A DNA stretch of 64,000 bases. It comes from an uncultured Pelagibacteraceae bacterium (GTDB taxonomy: Bacteria; Pseudomonadota; Alphaproteobacteria; Pelagibacterales; Pelagibacteraceae). The notes below the pieces were generated by a model. It saw nothing but the letters and a program-made list of their open reading frames with translations, was not told where the DNA came from and searched no databases. The position numbers were made by a program, and so were the translations under genes. The DNA lies in NCBI GenBank assembly GCA_902600485.1, contig CACKJD010000005.1, positions 15,905 through 79,904 of the forward strand. Reading direction: 5' to 3'. Below are positions 21,827 through 59,849 of the stretch, in pieces. Each line of letters starts with the position of its first letter. Position 1 is the stretch's first letter.

Positions 21827-22495
21827 CTAAGCCTTTTTAGTTTTAATTGGTTTTTTTCTATCAGGATAACAACTCGTACAAATTTTACAAGAAATACCGT
21901 AACAATCACGAGCTTTACAATATTCTCGACCATAAAAAATAATCTGCAAATGAAGTTTGTTCCAATATTTTTTTGGAAATAGACTTTTTAAATCTTCTTC
22001 GGTTTGAACAACATTCTTGCCATTAGTTAAACCCCACCTTTGAGCAAGCCGGTGAATATGAGTGTCTACTGGGAAAGCGGGATGACCAAAACCTTGAGAC
22101 ATGACCACACTTGCAGTTTTGTGACCTACTCCAGGAAGTTCTTCTAATTGTTCAAAGGTGCTTGGAACTTTACTATTATATTTTTCTACTAACGTTTTAG
22201 ACAAGTAATAAATACTTTTTGCTTTTATTCTAAATATTCCTATTCTTCTAATTAACCTTTCAATTTTTTTTCTTCCAAGTTTTACGAAATGAATAGGCTT
22301 ATAATATTTTGGATAAATATCTTTTGTCACATTATTTACATTTACATCTGTACATTGTGCAGACAAAAGAACTGAAATTAATAAAGTAAACACATTTCTA
22401 CTTTCAAGAGGGACATTGATGTGTGGATAAGTCTTATTAAGTATTTTTAATACTATTTTAGCTCTTTCGATTTTATCAGCATTTTTTGAACTCAT
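21827..22495 (-). CDS. nth: Endonuclease III
   Basis: LLSAQCTD, LPGVGHKTA (HhH), VDTHIHR, C-terminal Cys cluster. Confidence 0.95.
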   Translation of the reverse strand: MSSKNADKIERAKIVLKILNKTYPHINVPLESRNVFTLLISVLLSAQCTDVNVNNVTKDIYPKYYKPIHFVKLGRKKIERLIRRIGIFRIKAKSIYYLSKTLVEKYNSKVPSTFEQLEELPGVGHKTASVVMSQGFGHPAFPVDTHIHRLAQRWGLTNGKNVVQTEEDLKSLFPKKYWNKLHLQIIFYGREYCKARDCYGISCKICTSCYPDRKKPIKTKKA

Positions 22496-23265
22496 TTAAA
22501 GTTCAATACATCTCGCATTGAATAAAGGCCTGGTTTCTTCTTCATCAACCACTTTGCTGCGGTTAAAGCACCTTCAGAGTACAAGGCTCTATCAAACGCT
22601 TCATGATTTAAAGTTATAATTTCTTTGCCGCTAGAAAATTTTACCTCATGTTCACCAACTACTTCACCTTTTCTCATCGAATTAAAATTTATTTTTTTTC
22701 CGTAAGGAAAAGATTTTTTATTTAGATATTTTTTTCCAATCAATCTATTTAGATCTTTATTCTTCCCTATAGCTATTCCTTTTCCAAGCATTAAAGCTGT
22801 GCCAGACGGGTGATCTTTTTTATGTTTATGATGAATTTCAAAAACTTTACTCAAAAAATTGCTTCCAAGAGATTTGGAGGTAATTTCTGTTAAATACATT
22901 AATAAATTAATACCTAAGCTCATGTTTCCAGCTTTTAATATTGGAATTTTTTTAGAATATTTTTTTATTGTATTTTCCTGATTTTTAGTAAAACCAGTAG
23001 TACCTATAACAACCCTTTTTTTTAATTTTGAGGCAATTTTAAGGACTTCCAGAGTACATTTAGGTACTGTGAAATCTATAATGACATTAGTTTTTTTGAA
23101 AGAATTAACGTTATTAAATTCGGGTAAAACATTATTTATTTTTCTATTAATTTTAAAGTTTTCTGTGAGCGAAACTAACTTGAAGTTTTTATTTTTATTT
23201 GAAGATTTAATAAGCTGTTGTCCCATTCTTCCCATGCAGCCTGTTATAGTTAAATTTATTTTCAT
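22492..23265 (-). CDS. dapB: 4-hydroxy-tetrahydrodipicolinate reductase
   Basis: Start reassigned to MKINLTITGCMGRMG; IDFT, VIGTTG, EIHH.HKKD.PSGTA. Confidence 0.95.
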   Translation of the reverse strand: MKINLTITGCMGRMGQQLIKSSNKNKNFKLVSLTENFKINRKINNVLPEFNNVNSFKKTNVIIDFTVPKCTLEVLKIASKLKKRVVIGTTGFTKNQENTIKKYSKKIPILKAGNMSLGINLLMYLTEITSKSLGSNFLSKVFEIHHKHKKDHPSGTALMLGKGIAIGKNKDLNRLIGKKYLNKKSFPYGKKINFNSMRKGEVVGEHEVKFSSGKEIITLNHEAFDRALYSEGALTAAKWLMKKKPGLYSMRDVLNFK

Positions 23266-23278
23266 ATAAAGATTTTGT

Positions 23279-23293
23279 TGATAATGATTATCA
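23279..23293. promoter_or_regulatory. Classical Fur box 1
   Basis: Perfect 7-1-7 TGATAAT-G-ATTATCA; 16/19 to GATAATGATAATCATTATC on the minus strand (23280-23298). Confidence 0.7.
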
Positions 23294-23339
23294 TTCATAA
23301 AGATTTTTTTAAAGAGATGTTTTTAATTGGTTTTTTTGT

Positions 23340-23358
23340 GATAATGATAATCAATATT
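23340..23358. promoter_or_regulatory. Classical Fur box 2
   Basis: GATAATGATAATCAATATT, 17/19 to the classical consensus. Confidence 0.7.
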
Positions 23359-23404
23359 ATACGTTATTTCTTGAATAATTTTTTTTATTTCTTATCTTCA
23401 ATTT

Positions 23405-23584
23405 ATGCAAACCCAAAAATTTAGTTGTAAAAAATGTGGATTAACGATTTCATCAGTATGTTCTAAATGCGATAGAGTTGTTGATGTAAAATTGCTTGAT
23501 AGCGGATGTTTAGTTCAAGTAACTAAATGTGGCGACTGTTCAAGTGTTCCAGTTATTAAAGATATCTGCACAGAAAATAATTAA
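23405..23584 (+). CDS. Cys-rich small protein, 59 aa, three CxxC motifs (not in ORF track)
   Basis: Hand translation MQTQKFSCKKCGLTISSVCSKCDRVVDVKLLDSGCLVQVTKCGDCSSVPVIKDICTENN*. Confidence 0.75.
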   Translation: MQTQKFSCKKCGLTISSVCSKCDRVVDVKLLDSGCLVQVTKCGDCSSVPVIKDICTENN

Positions 23585-23591
23585 TTAATAT

Positions 23592-23759
23592 TTATAATAC
23601 AAAATATATAAATATTAATATTATAGCTATCACTATAATCCATATTGAGAAATTCTTAATTAATATCTTCAAGTTATAATTGGTTTGAATAAAACCGGGT
23701 AGTACCAATATTAGAACACCTATTAATGCTATTACCGGGACAATAACTTCAAGACTCAT
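23592..23759 (-). CDS. Small two-TM membrane protein, 55 aa (not in ORF track)
   Basis: Hand translation MSLEVIVPVIALIGVLILVLPGFIQTNYNLKILIKNFSIWIIVIAIILIFIYFVL*; starts 2 nt after the upstream stop. Confidence 0.7.
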   Translation of the reverse strand: MSLEVIVPVIALIGVLILVLPGFIQTNYNLKILIKNFSIWIIVIAIILIFIYFVL

Positions 23760-23761
23760 AA

Positions 23762-24595
23762 CTATTTTACCTTAATACTTTTATGAAATAAAAAAAAGTT
23801 TTGTGATCTATCCTGAAGTTTTTTTACAAAATTTTCAATATTAAAAATTCTTTTTAAATTTTCGTCGAAAAATAAATAATCTAAATCTTTTTTAATATAA
23901 TTTATCAAATTTTCTGGTGTGTATCCAAATTCCTTATATAAATAAGGAGCAAATTCAAAATATATGAAGGGTTTGTGTTTCATAATTGTTGTTTTACCAC
24001 TTTTTAATACATCTAGTTCATATCCATCTACATCAATTTTAATGAGGTCAATATTTTGAAGTTTTGAGCAAATTTGATCAAGTTTTTTTGTTTTTAATGA
24101 TGTTTTCTTTAAAATACCCAAATGAACCTTGTGTTTTTTACCACTATCTAAAAAATTCCATGATGAATGAACTTCCTTGGTTATTTTTTTTTTATTTGAA
24201 ATAAAAATATTTTGAAGGATAATTCTTTTTTTTAAATAAGGATTTAAATTTACATTTTTCTTTAGTTTAGAAAATGCATATACTGTTGGTTCAATAGAAA
24301 TTATTGTAGAATTTTTAAATGTTTTTGCTAATGGAAGGGATACAGAACCTATATTTGCACCAATATCAATTATTGTTTTTTTTTTGTTAATATTCATAAT
24401 TTTATCTATATTTAAAATAGAAGCCTCATTGCTTATACCAAGAAAAATTCCTAGGTCGATGCCTTCTCTAAGATTAATACAATAATTAATATTATTTCTT
24501 TTTATTATCTTGCTTTTGTCTCCAAGAAAGAAAACCAAAAGATTACTTATTAATGATGCACACTTAATTTTCAATTTTGTTGATAAAGATATCAT
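23762..24595 (-). CDS. FkbM-family SAM-dependent methyltransferase
   Basis: IIDIGANIG, IEP, IKIDVDGYELDVL. Confidence 0.88.
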   Translation of the reverse strand: MISLSTKLKIKCASLISNLLVFFLGDKSKIIKRNNINYCINLREGIDLGIFLGISNEASILNIDKIMNINKKKTIIDIGANIGSVSLPLAKTFKNSTIISIEPTVYAFSKLKKNVNLNPYLKKRIILQNIFISNKKKITKEVHSSWNFLDSGKKHKVHLGILKKTSLKTKKLDQICSKLQNIDLIKIDVDGYELDVLKSGKTTIMKHKPFIYFEFAPYLYKEFGYTPENLINYIKKDLDYLFFDENLKRIFNIENFVKKLQDRSQNFFLFHKSIKVK

Positions 24596-24624
24596 TTAAA
24601 AAAATAGTTTTTATTTTATTGGTT

Positions 24625-39578: not shown

Positions 39579-40004
39579 ATGACAGATACAATAGAGCAAA
39601 AATGTTTAGCCAAAGGTGTAAAATTAACCGATCAAAGAAAAACTATTGCAAGAGTTATATCTGAGTCTAAAAAAAATTATGGTGAGTCAGATCATCCTGA
39701 TGTCGATGAACTTTATAAAAGAGTTTCCGACATAGATAGCAAGATAAGTATTGCAACAGTTTATAGAACAGTAAAATTATTTGAAGAGTCTGGCATTTTA
39801 ATGAAACATGATTTTAAAGACGGAAAAGCAAGATATGAGCTTAATGATGATCATAATCATTTAATAGATATAAAAACTGGAAATATAATTGAATTTACTA
39901 GTGATGAAATTGAAATTATTCAAAAAAAAATAGCAGAAAAACATGGATATAAGTTAGTTGACTCAAAACTTGAACTTTACTGTGTTAAAAATAAATCTGA
40001 GTAA
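39579..40004 (+). CDS. fur: Fur/Mur-family metalloregulator
   Basis: T.QR, DHPDV.ELY.R, ISIATVYRTVKLF, HLIDI.TG.IIEF. Confidence 0.9.
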   Translation: MTDTIEQKCLAKGVKLTDQRKTIARVISESKKNYGESDHPDVDELYKRVSDIDSKISIATVYRTVKLFEESGILMKHDFKDGKARYELNDDHNHLIDIKTGNIIEFTSDEIEIIQKKIAEKHGYKLVDSKLELYCVKNKSE

Positions 40005-51999: not shown

Positions 52000-52680
52000 A
52001 TGAAGACTCTAATGGAATTAAACTTTAGAGAAAAAATATGGTGTCAATTATTCAAAATTAAATTTTTTAGAGAGAAAGTTTTTTATAAGTTAAGTAGATA
52101 CAAAAAAAAACTTCAAACTTTAGATAAATTAAATTTAAACCCTAAATCTGTTGTATTAGATATTGGTGGAAATAATGGTGTAGTTTCAAAATATATTTAT
52201 GATAAATATCGTTGCAATATTGAAATTTATGAGCCTAATCCTTATTGTGTACTAATTCTTAAAGAAATTTTTTTTTATTATCCAAAAGTAAAAGTATATG
52301 AAGCTGCAATCTCAAATAAAAAAAGTGTTAAAAAATTATATTATCATAAACTTGAGACAAATTTAAAAAATATGTCCCTATCTGAAAGTTCAACATTAGA
52401 AAGTATAAAAAGTAATATATCTAAAAAAAAGTTTAAAAAAGTTAAAACTGAAAATATAAAATCAATTTTGAACAAGTATAAAAAAATAAACTTTCTTAAA
52501 ATTGACATAGAGGGTCATGAATATAAAATTTTACCTGAGATAATTAAAAATTTAAAAAAAATTGATATTATTTTTTGTGAGATGCATGGAAGCAAGCATC
52601 GAAAAGAGTTTCAAAACCAATATAAATTATGGAAAAAGAAAATAAAAAAAATTCAAAATAAAAAGTTTTTTGAATGGTAG
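52000..52680 (+). CDS. FkbM-family methyltransferase
   Basis: LDIGGNNG, YEPNP, LKIDIEGHEY. Confidence 0.85.
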   Translation: MKTLMELNFREKIWCQLFKIKFFREKVFYKLSRYKKKLQTLDKLNLNPKSVVLDIGGNNGVVSKYIYDKYRCNIEIYEPNPYCVLILKEIFFYYPKVKVYEAAISNKKSVKKLYYHKLETNLKNMSLSESSTLESIKSNISKKKFKKVKTENIKSILNKYKKINFLKIDIEGHEYKILPEIIKNLKKIDIIFCEMHGSKHRKEFQNQYKLWKKKIKKIQNKKFFEW

Positions 52681-56232: not shown

Positions 56233-56249
56233 TTTAGAATAGTTATAAA
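56233..56249. promoter_or_regulatory. Irr box (ICE) upstream of irr
   Basis: TTTAGAA-TAG-TTATAAA versus ICE TTTAGAA-N3-TTCTAAA. Confidence 0.7.
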
Positions 56250-56254
56250 TTACT

Positions 56255-56674
56255 ATGTTAAATAATAGCCAATATATAGAAAAATTAAGAAGTTCTGGCT
56301 TAAGACCAACAAAACAAAGAATAAAAATTTGCGAAGTTCTGTTTAATACACAAAAGACTTTTCATTTTACAATTAACGAACTTGTTAAAAGAATAAGTAA
56401 GTCAACAAACGACAAAATTTCACTTGCAACTGTTTATAACACAGTTCATGCATTCAAAAACAAAGGTTACTTAAAAGAGATACCAATTAATTCTGATCAA
56501 AGTTATTTTGATACCAATACGTCGCATCACCACCATTTCTATGATGAGACCCAAAAAGATTTAATCGACATAGATGATGCAGATGTTGAGCCAGTTAAAA
56601 TTAATACAAGAATTCCTGGAAAAAAAATCAAGTCAGTAGAAGTACTTGTTAAAGTCGAAGACGACAAATCTTAA
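56255..56674 (+). CDS. irr: Iron response regulator Irr (Fur family)
   Basis: GLRPTKQR, SLATVYNT, YFDTNTSHHHHF; divergent from fabA as in many alphaproteobacteria. Confidence 0.9.
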   Translation: MLNNSQYIEKLRSSGLRPTKQRIKICEVLFNTQKTFHFTINELVKRISKSTNDKISLATVYNTVHAFKNKGYLKEIPINSDQSYFDTNTSHHHHFYDETQKDLIDIDDADVEPVKINTRIPGKKIKSVEVLVKVEDDKS

Positions 56675-56686
56675 TTCAATTTCTAC

Positions 56687-56735
56687 ATTATAATAGTTCT
56701 AAACTGTTGACAAATTTATTTAGAATTATTATAAA
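56687..56735 (+). promoter_or_regulatory. katG sigma70 promoter bracketed by two ICE boxes
   Basis: TTGACA(56707)-N17-TATAAA(56730); ATTATAA-TAG-TTCTAAA (56687-56703) and TTTAGAA-TTA-TTATAAA (56719-56735). Confidence 0.8.
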
Positions 56736-58992: not shown

Positions 58993-59604
58993 ATGGAAAC
59001 TGCACTTAATACACCTAAAGTAAGCTTTGAAGATTTCTACGAAGTACCTAACTTAAAATTTGATATTGAAAAACTTAGAGCTGATTTAGACAAAATTCTT
59101 GAAGAAAAAAAGTTTAATTCACCAGGAGTTACACACTTTGGTGCAATCCCGCTTAACCAGATACCTAATGATGAAAATTCTATTAAAGGTAATAATATTA
59201 GAGGTAAATATTGGACTATAGCAGACGAGACAGGAAAAGAAGTTTCAAGAGATGTAGAAATTGATGAGTCTAAATATACTAAACTTTTACCAGAATTTGA
59301 AAAAACATATTTTAAAGAAGTATATGAAACGCTAAGTAAAAAGTTTAGATTAGGAAGAGTAAGATTATTATTAAAAGAACCAAGATCTACTTTGAGTTGG
59401 CATAAAGATCCAGAGTGCAGATTGCATGTACCAATAATAACAAACCCAGGTTGCTCGATGGTAATCGAAAACGTTGCAAAACATTTGCCAGCTGATGGCA
59501 GGGTTTGGATTACAAATAATACTAAATACCATAATTTTTTTAATGGAGGGGAGCAAGCTAGGATACACTTAGTAGCATGTGTATTAGACAGTCCATTTAA
59601 GTAA
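58993..59604 (+). CDS. 2OG-Fe(II) dioxygenase-fold protein (Asp/Asn beta-hydroxylase-like)
   Basis: LSWHKD...RLHVPIITN...N.TKYH...N.G...RIHLV (HxD...H triad). Confidence 0.75.
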   Translation: METALNTPKVSFEDFYEVPNLKFDIEKLRADLDKILEEKKFNSPGVTHFGAIPLNQIPNDENSIKGNNIRGKYWTIADETGKEVSRDVEIDESKYTKLLPEFEKTYFKEVYETLSKKFRLGRVRLLLKEPRSTLSWHKDPECRLHVPIITNPGCSMVIENVAKHLPADGRVWITNNTKYHNFFNGGEQARIHLVACVLDSPFK

Positions 59605-59849
59605 TGACTGAATTTACCAAAGGCATATTTGAGGTAAGTAGAGACGTTTACAAAAATAACAAAGGCTCAATATTAAGAACAATTGTTTATACAATTGGTC
59701 ACTTTGCAATTGCTATTACAGTATTAATGCTTGTAGCAGATGTATCTTTTATGATTGCCCTAACAGATGCAATTGTTGAACCAATAGCAAATTCAGTTTG
59801 GTACTTTGTTTTAGATAAGTGGTGGGCAAGTAAAAGCAAAAAGTCCTAG
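59604..59849 (+). CDS. DUF2061-like small membrane protein
   Basis: SILRT..YT..H..I....A....EP.AN..WY...DKWW pattern. Confidence 0.65.
   Translation: MTEFTKGIFEVSRDVYKNNKGSILRTIVYTIGHFAIAITVLMLVADVSFMIALTDAIVEPIANSVWYFVLDKWWASKSKKS

Follow-up and report, generated by a model that had tools for sequence, protein, structure and literature searches.

Iron limits productivity over large areas of the ocean, where SAR11 is the most abundant heterotroph. Descriptions of iron regulation in SAR11 present it as minimal: one transporter operon predicted to be controlled by Fur, rubrerythrin under Irr, and suf under IscR. For P. ubique, Rodionov et al. (2006) predicted that Fur regulates a single operon; they named only rubrerythrin or cytochrome c peroxidase as predicted Irr targets in SAR11, and found the Fur and Mur boxes of alphaproteobacteria to be similar to the classical box (PMC1698941). 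A scan of 22 SAR11 genomes for the 7-1-7 motif by Hogle et al. (2016) gave a single box in each, located at FTR1 or the Fe3+ binding-protein gene, examples being ATTGATAATCATTCGCAAT at SAR11_1238, AATGATAATCATTATCAAT and ATTGAGAATAATTCTCATT (PMC4771312, Data Set S3). The SAR11 Fe3+ transporter is up 5- to 16-fold on iron limitation (Smith et al. 2010). Since classical Fur boxes have already been reported in SAR11, at the Fe3+ transporter, boxes of this type are to be expected in the lineage. In metagenome contigs, the HTCC1062-type box and a second, abutting box occupy the 50-90 nt 5' of a binding-protein gene (339 aa) whose leader contains a Shine-Dalgarno sequence, and these operators must overlap the predicted promoter of the Fe3+ transporter. 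The 339-aa protein is not named above cutoff by NCBIfam.

Repression is the usual mode of Fur, and a pair of strong Fur sites is typically associated with tight repression. Direct control by Fur extends to very small proteins, such as B. subtilis FbpA/B/C and bacterioferritin-associated ferredoxin, Bfd, the latter being Cys-ligated. Activation by Fur is described in Caulobacter crescentus, where sites at nuoA, sdhC and acnA lie upstream of the -35 element of Fur-activated, iron-using genes, and where genes with overlapping sites are repressed (da Silva Neto 2009; PMC2724300). Operators 5' of the -35 element also occur at the Fur-activated promoters of Neisseria meningitidis norB, pan1 and nuoA. 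These Caulobacter and Neisseria promoters have mapped start sites, reporter data and known iron enzymes as products.

Here we describe a second lineage-wide candidate member of the Fur regulon in SAR11, with an unusual operator-promoter layout. The window analyzed is a stretch of 64,000 nucleotides of Pelagibacteraceae DNA. Two Fur boxes were found in the 139-bp divergent control region between dapB (4-hydroxy-tetrahydrodipicolinate reductase; 22492-23265, minus strand; TIGR00036, 198 bits) and a small Cys-rich gene encoding 59 aa (23405-23584, plus strand). The distal operator (box 1; 23279-23293) is a perfect 7-1-7 palindrome, TGATAATGATTATCA, centered at -119 from the ATG of the small ORF and 13 nt from the dapB ATG at 23265. 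The proximal operator (box 2; 23339-23359) spans -66 to -46. It contains the 19-mer GATAATGATAATCAATATT (23340-23358), which lies 46 nt upstream of the small ORF's ATG (23405) and is identical to the 19-bp E. coli consensus, GATAATGATAATCATTATC, at 17 of 19 positions, and it consists of two overlapping 7-1-7 units, one at 23339-23353 with a single mismatch and one at 23345-23359 with two. The centers of the 7-1-7 units, 23286 and 23346, are 60 bp apart. At the sequence level there is no difference from the E. coli/B. subtilis Fur box (GATAATGATAATCATTATC; 7-1-7 TGATAATNATTATCA), and the regulator here is a Fur/Mur of the alpha type. A T-rich tract (23330-23338) lies directly 5' of the proximal operator, at which relatives align an A-tract/T-tract; the consensus at -75 to -64 in 29 ATG-anchored upstream regions is AaaaaaatTttg.

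A pattern search of the whole window for the 7-1-7 motif with zero or one mismatch recovered only box 1 and box 2. With up to two mismatches, seven matches were found, three of them at 23279-23359, compared to a mean of 2.09 in dinucleotide-preserving shuffles. The 19-mer gave three matches with up to three mismatches, all at this locus, versus a shuffle mean of 0.16, and none of 100 shuffles attained three. A preliminary description of this DNA had listed both box matches, their distances to each other and to the flanking genes, and the lack of further such matches in the window; every one of these was reproduced, and the match frequency exceeded that in shuffled sequence. The same description had considered the intergenic region apparently empty and the box type unexpected in an alphaproteobacterium. 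Neither view can be kept, as the region is the divergent control region of dapB and a real, conserved small gene, SAR11 7-1-7 boxes have been published (PMC4771312), and alphaproteobacterial boxes resemble the classical one (PMC1698941). Its suggestion that the Fur of this lineage uses the classical box agrees with the occurrence of the same motif class at the SAR11 Fe3+ transporter. One of the two-mismatch 7-1-7 matches, TGATGATCATAATCA at 39845-39859, lies within the fur coding sequence and is probably due to chance, because the four such matches outside the present locus equal the shuffle expectation.

The small ORF is widely represented in relatives. There are 45 relatives of its product in a collection of 5.8 billion proteins, and tblastn located relatives in 313 stretches of species-representative genomes. 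Among 22 diverged loci, column entropy summed by codon position was 15.4/6.6/46.0, synonymous codon differences outnumbered non-synonymous ones (3912 vs 1696), and all eight Cys residues (C8, C11, C19, C22, C35, C42, C45 and C55) were invariant. This pattern of substitution shows the predicted ORF to be a real gene under purifying selection. It had previously been termed unannotated, which is true insofar as neither Pfam nor NCBIfam has a family for the 59-aa protein of the window; an identical or near-identical protein is, on the other hand, deposited at NCBI as a ‘hypothetical protein’.

We compared 76 species-level relative loci and searched a box zone extending from -140 to -40 relative to the ATG of the ORF. 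At least one 15-mer with no more than two mismatches to the 7-1-7 motif was present in the box zone of 73/76 loci; 49 loci had a match with at most one mismatch and 31 a perfect one. The remaining 430 kb of these loci held 17 two-mismatch sites, corresponding to a 481-fold enrichment upstream of the ORF, and zero sites with one mismatch or fewer. The proximal box starts at -66/-65 in most lineages, or at -59, which is the register of the second overlapping unit. The distal box varies by clade and is located at -126, -115/-116, -106, -95 or -89. Fur boxes are retained in clades with protein identities of only 64% and 52%, and some relatives carry the variants GCAAAC...TTTGC or GCGAAT...ATTCGC. 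The first sign of this conservation came from N-terminal extensions of the type ‘MIII...’ or ‘MIMIII...’ made by several gene callers, which pointed to a conserved box some 60 nt upstream. The 60-bp spacing seen in the window was ruled out as a meaningful constant, given that relatives have 24, 30, 36, 41, 50/51 or 60 bp.

A genome of ~70% A+T and an AT-rich motif might be expected to yield palindromes by chance and without function, a reading that is effectively refuted by the shuffle controls, the 481-fold enrichment and the positional conservation across diverged species. The sites match the consensus beyond chance and are conserved at orthologous promoters, and a cognate Fur is encoded; by such comparative criteria, they count as real and functional Fur operators. 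Several spurious gene calls run through these operators. The public gene calls of relatives P0007, P0014, P0016 and P0031 have ‘MIII’ or ‘MIMIII’ N-terminal extensions that are translated Fur box, and a 49-aa ORF starting with TTG (23275-23424, plus strand) extends across both boxes of the window. A longer dapB ORF starting at 23298 (minus strand) was rejected as an artifact whose 11-codon extension, MNDNHYQQNLY, is translated box 1.

With only 13 nt between box 1 and the dapB start, box 1 necessarily overlaps the dapB promoter here, and the boxes might primarily regulate dapB and place lysine and diaminopimelate synthesis under iron control. We consider this very improbable. The dapB gene adjoins the box region solely in L002-L015 and L043, all of which are close relatives; dapB context accounts for 16 loci, and the boxes occur without dapB nearby in 60/76 loci. 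In another close relative (L001; AG-453-L03), dapB and the boxes are set apart by a 266-aa gene, and no box is present upstream of dapB. In HTCC1062, dapB (SAR11_0366) is followed directly by dnaJ (SAR11_0367) with no gene annotated between them, and the dapB transcript does not rise under iron limitation (ratio 0.84), being grouped with stationary-phase genes. A dedicated link to dapB, as put forward in the preliminary description, is not borne out. Because dapB neighbors the boxes in close relatives alone, we assign the Fur boxes to the small Cys8 gene and regard dapB as a bystander, on which box 1, by overlapping the dapB promoter in this lineage, could plausibly exert a side effect.

The boxes accompany the small ORF through at least five genomic contexts. 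The ORF is located after katG in 31/80 loci, most often with genes for an AspH-like hydroxylase and a DUF2061 membrane protein in between, and in other genomes it follows a thiolase gene, an epoxide-hydrolase-like gene, or recJ plus two uncharacterized genes. In the window, the katG-AspH-DUF2061 array is followed at once and without a gap by an SH3 gene (59849/59846), which is an empty site for the module. In L001, the rearrangement breakpoint immediately abuts the left edge of box 1, which places box 1 in the small-ORF module. The L001 breakpoint and the empty site between DUF2061 and SH3 (59849) define this module as operators, predicted promoter and ORF, ~310 bp in total; it is conserved throughout Pelagibacteraceae and has moved among several chromosomal sites. 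The window thus shows both an empty site and a module relocated beside dapB. Downstream of the small ORF, on the minus strand, are a 55-aa hydrophobic ORF, an FkbM-type methyltransferase gene, dnaJ and dnaK. Owing to the dapB-dnaJ adjacency in HTCC1062, positions 23266-24624 of the window constitute an insertion relative to that strain.

It had been proposed that a cassette was imported together with its operators. The operators do travel with the ORF, and 23266-24624 is an insertion relative to HTCC1062; import from outside the lineage is the part that finds no support. The best 80 genome matches were all Pelagibacteraceae or Pelagibacterales, from single cells or cultures and several at 100% identity, and the ORF family was found exclusively in marine, low-GC contigs. 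No integrase or transposase is present beside the module. Movement within the lineage is shown by the different sites that the module occupies.

Several further features of these regions were observed. The 81-aa DUF2061-like ORF of the window (59604-59849) and the SH3-domain gene have overlapping stops, and in ~30 other Pelagibacteraceae genomes the module of Fur boxes and Cys ORF lies exactly between the DUF2061-like and SH3-domain genes. The inserted 266-aa gene of L001 (2027-2827, minus strand) has no assigned function. The dapB-dnaJ interval is a variable spot. The FkbM methyltransferase gene (23762-24595) is present in just 6/16 dapB-context loci. Together with a second gene at 52000-52680, the window holds two FkbM-family methyltransferase genes within 64 kb of a streamlined genome.

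Promoter elements of the small gene were predicted from an ungapped, ATG-anchored footprint of 29 upstream regions at <80% identity. Information peaks at the proximal box, at -34 to -32 and at -12 to -7. The predicted -35 hexamer, TTGAAT (23371-23376, plus strand), is conserved as T at -34 (97%), T at -33 (72%) and G at -32 (69%). It is separated by a 16-nt spacer from the predicted -10 hexamer, TATCTT (23393-23398, plus strand), which is conserved as T at -12 (93%), A at -11 (93%), T at -9 (90%) and T at -7 (69%). We infer a promoter reading TTGaat-N16-TAtTtT, which would start transcription at the first base of the ATG and so produce a leaderless mRNA. No G-rich or purine-rich Shine-Dalgarno stretch was found between -20 and -1. 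The clade at 64% identity has the promoter layout of the window; in the clade at 52% identity a Shine-Dalgarno sequence is present, the promoter is less clear, and the box is situated still further upstream.

Neither operator reaches the best-conserved -35 element of this predicted promoter; both are entirely upstream of it, and the distance from the proximal site (-66 to -46) to the -35 element at -34 is nearly fixed. A promoter embedded in the proximal box, with TTGAGA or TTGATA as the -35 element, was also considered and is not favored, as there is no conserved -10 element 17 nt downstream and information at -43 to -38 is <0.4 bit. Relative to the conserved elements at -34 and -12 the operators are upstream, and hexamers resembling -10 elements are also present within the boxes.

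In metatranscriptomes, contigs that include the small ORF were recovered; most cover dapB, the intergenic region and the ORF at uniformly low depth, and a single contig begins at 23394. In one run (X9), contig word depth reached 360-1090 over 23535-23709 (~175 nt) compared to ~4 in the flanks, and this peak was absent from three other runs (X11-X13). Within the segment are the 3'-terminal part of the Cys ORF, the 7 nt that separate it from the next ORF, and most of that ORF, the hydrophobic one of 55 aa (minus strand). On the plus strand it folds with z = -2.8 and contains a 13-bp AT hairpin between the convergent genes; on the minus strand z = -1.8. No Rfam family was detected anywhere in the window, this segment included. 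The peak could be the mRNA of a very highly expressed tiny membrane protein or a small RNA.

The layout can be set beside that of the SAR11 Fe3+ transporter (sfuC/FutA-like, SAR11_1238) or FTR1. The two share the organism group, the motif class (7-1-7/19-mer, TGA[T/G]AATnATT[A/C][T/G]CA), two sites per promoter, and proximal sites that end ~46-53 nt before the ATG. At the transporter, however, abutting boxes fill the -35/-10 space and a Shine-Dalgarno leader is present, whereas the boxes of the small-gene module are 24-60 bp apart and upstream of the putative -35 element, and the mRNA looks leaderless. Its target is a 59-aa protein that is not a transporter and is absent from the published lists. 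No mention of the small Cys-rich gene as a Fur target was found in the literature searched. With respect to its predicted promoter, the module has its operators upstream of the -35 element, as do the Fur-activated Caulobacter promoters and the Neisseria ones, and with Caulobacter it shares an alphaproteobacterial Fur; it differs from both in having a predicted promoter and two operators.

The window encodes two members of the Fur family. The candidate regulator, fur (39579-40004, plus strand), whose presence had been noted before, matches PF01475 with an E-value of 2.6e-36, and its best NCBIfam match is Fur, below cutoff. It aligns over its full length (E ~1e-44) with structures of alphaproteobacterial Fur/Mur proteins, of which 5FD5/5FD6 and Magnetospirillum gryphiswaldense Fur, 4RAY/4RB1, are the best. 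We take 5FD5/5FD6 to be the Rhizobium manganese regulator Mur, although the search tool labels it merely as ferric uptake regulation protein. The M. gryphiswaldense protein was reportedly crystallized on a classical Fur box. The Fur of the window probably has no Cys4 zinc site, because there is a single Cys in the aligned C-terminal region. The second member is an Irr-like gene (56255-56674) directly upstream of katG. No iron transporter was found among the 46 window ORFs scanned against Pfam and NCBIfam.

A window search for the Irr box (ICE, TTTRGAAYNRTTCYAAA) returned no match near 23279-23358. Given Irr-box matches at irr/katG and Fur boxes elsewhere, the two Fur-family regulators have separate candidate sites. 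Six ICE matches were found in the window against a shuffle mean of 2.4, and half of them are at irr/katG: 56233-56249, 56687-56703 and 56719-56735, with one, two and one mismatches, respectively. The first ends 6 nt before the ATG of the Irr-like gene and the other two lie between irr and katG. The arrangement suggests Irr autoregulation and Irr control of the heme enzyme KatG in this lineage.

The presence of the Irr-like gene (56255-56674) raises the question of whether a different Fur-family protein, such as Irr, Zur, a PerR-like protein or a manganese-sensing Mur, binds the boxes in response to a signal other than iron. This would fit the presumed identity of 5FD5/5FD6, among the closest solved relatives of the Fur, with Rhizobium Mur, as well as the GCAAAC...TTTGC and GCGAAT...ATTCGC variants of some relatives and the frequent location of the module near katG. 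We nevertheless judge it improbable, as clustered Irr-box matches occur at irr/katG alone, the boxes agree with those of the iron-responsive SAR11 Fe3+ transporter, and no Zur or PerR gene was seen in the window.

We hypothesize that the window's own Fur (39579-40004) is the regulator acting at both boxes of the 59-aa Cys8 gene. Fe2+-loaded Fur dimers on the proximal (-66 to -46) and distal (-126 to -112) sites would make transcription of the small gene responsive to iron, and the putative TTGAAT-N16-TATCTT promoter would give rise to a leaderless mRNA. That the boxes are Fur operators and place the small gene under iron control is the well-supported part of this proposal. Fe-Fur may repress through the AT-rich upstream (UP-element) zone, perhaps by spreading or bridging between the sites, and under such repression the small protein would be made when iron is scarce. 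For repression of the Cys8 gene by Fe-Fur via both operators, we put the chances at about even. Consistent with repression, boxes of the same motif class are found at the SAR11 Fe3+ binding-protein gene, which is up 16-fold under iron limitation, and this sole tested SAR11 Fur target behaves as repressed. Against it, the operators here lie upstream of the -35 element, whereas those at the SAR11 Fe3+ transporter overlap the promoter, and sites that are only upstream are those of Fur-activated genes in Caulobacter.

The same geometry would allow Fe-Fur, bound just 5' of the -35 element, to switch on a weak leaderless promoter. Under activation, the Cys8 protein would be made when iron is sufficient and would be an iron-using or iron-binding protein, e.g., an iron buffer or a redox carrier resembling rubredoxin. 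In all lineages the operators are entirely upstream of the conserved -35 element at a nearly fixed distance, as the Caulobacter nuoA, sdhC and acnA precedent (PMC2724300) would lead one to expect, and the -10 element matches consensus at just 4/6 positions, which might leave the promoter in need of assistance. CxxC knuckles of the rubredoxin/zinc-ribbon type are present in the product, its gene is often beside katG, an Fe(II)-hydroxylase-like gene and a peroxiredoxin gene, and P. ubique is reported to be without ferritin. Direct activation is, however, a minority mode of Fur, two strong operators fit tight repression better, and both the promoter position and iron binding by the protein are putative. 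We therefore prefer repression by Fe-Fur by a narrow margin, regard activation as a possible but less probable mode, and consider all other readings together unlikely; the promoter call carries some doubt of its own.

The Cys residues of the product are arranged as CxxC-x7-CxxC followed by C35, a third CxxC and C55, giving three CxxC knuckles and two single Cys. The invariant knuckles (C8-x2-C11, C19-x2-C22 and C42-x2-C45) include the paired CxxC of the zinc-ribbon/rubredoxin-like class, and the pattern is suggestive of a pair of Cys4 metal sites resembling zinc ribbons or rubredoxin knuckles. The likeness to zinc-ribbon and rubredoxin-knuckle mini-proteins such as DZR (PF12773) consists of CxxC-x7-CxxC plus the third CxxC and falls below every curated cutoff: relatives matched PF12773 with E = 7e-4 and a sub-threshold 20 bits (cutoff 27.3 bits), and the rubredoxin-like matches were also sub-threshold. 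AlphaFold models had a pLDDT of 42 on the family alignment and 62.6 with remote relatives added. Foldseek searches of the PDB gave nothing below E = 1 (best E 1.8), and a PDB sequence profile search with the small protein gave nothing below E = 0.5. The small protein thus reached no curated family threshold and no significant fold match. Resemblance to FbpA/B/C and Bfd is one of analogy only, as there is no sequence similarity and Pfam Fer2_BFD was not matched.

An exhaustive profile search identified a remote ‘MATYECxKCGM’ family (MATYECxKCGMSVNATCGKCD...) in which five or six of the Cys are retained; the full eight-Cys pattern is confined to the Pelagibacterales family. Neither of the two remote loci inspected has a Fur box, and the link to Fur is therefore specific to the Pelagibacterales family as well.

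A second Fur target, with operators conserved in hundreds of SAR11 species and moving with their gene, would represent an unrecognized part of iron homeostasis in this group. If so, the small-gene transcript would provide a new in-situ marker of SAR11 iron status, the second besides sfuC in metatranscriptomes. Operators upstream of an apparently leaderless promoter also make for a simple test case of whether SAR11 Fur activates as well as represses. In its most specific and rather doubtful form, our proposal is that the second lineage-wide regulon member would be a leaderless, metal-binding mini-protein of 59 aa and eight Cys, activated by Fe-Fur from upstream operators and serving as an iron buffer or redox partner in ferritin-less cells, or as an iron-sparing factor if it is instead repressed.

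Lastly, two metagenome contigs (L085 and L089; GC 0.31-0.32) carry ATTGATAATCATTCGCAAT and a second box, AATTAATAATCATTTGCAA, in another divergent intergenic context. This box pair lies away from the binding-protein gene and may mark another Fur target, in a marine bacterium of low GC content.
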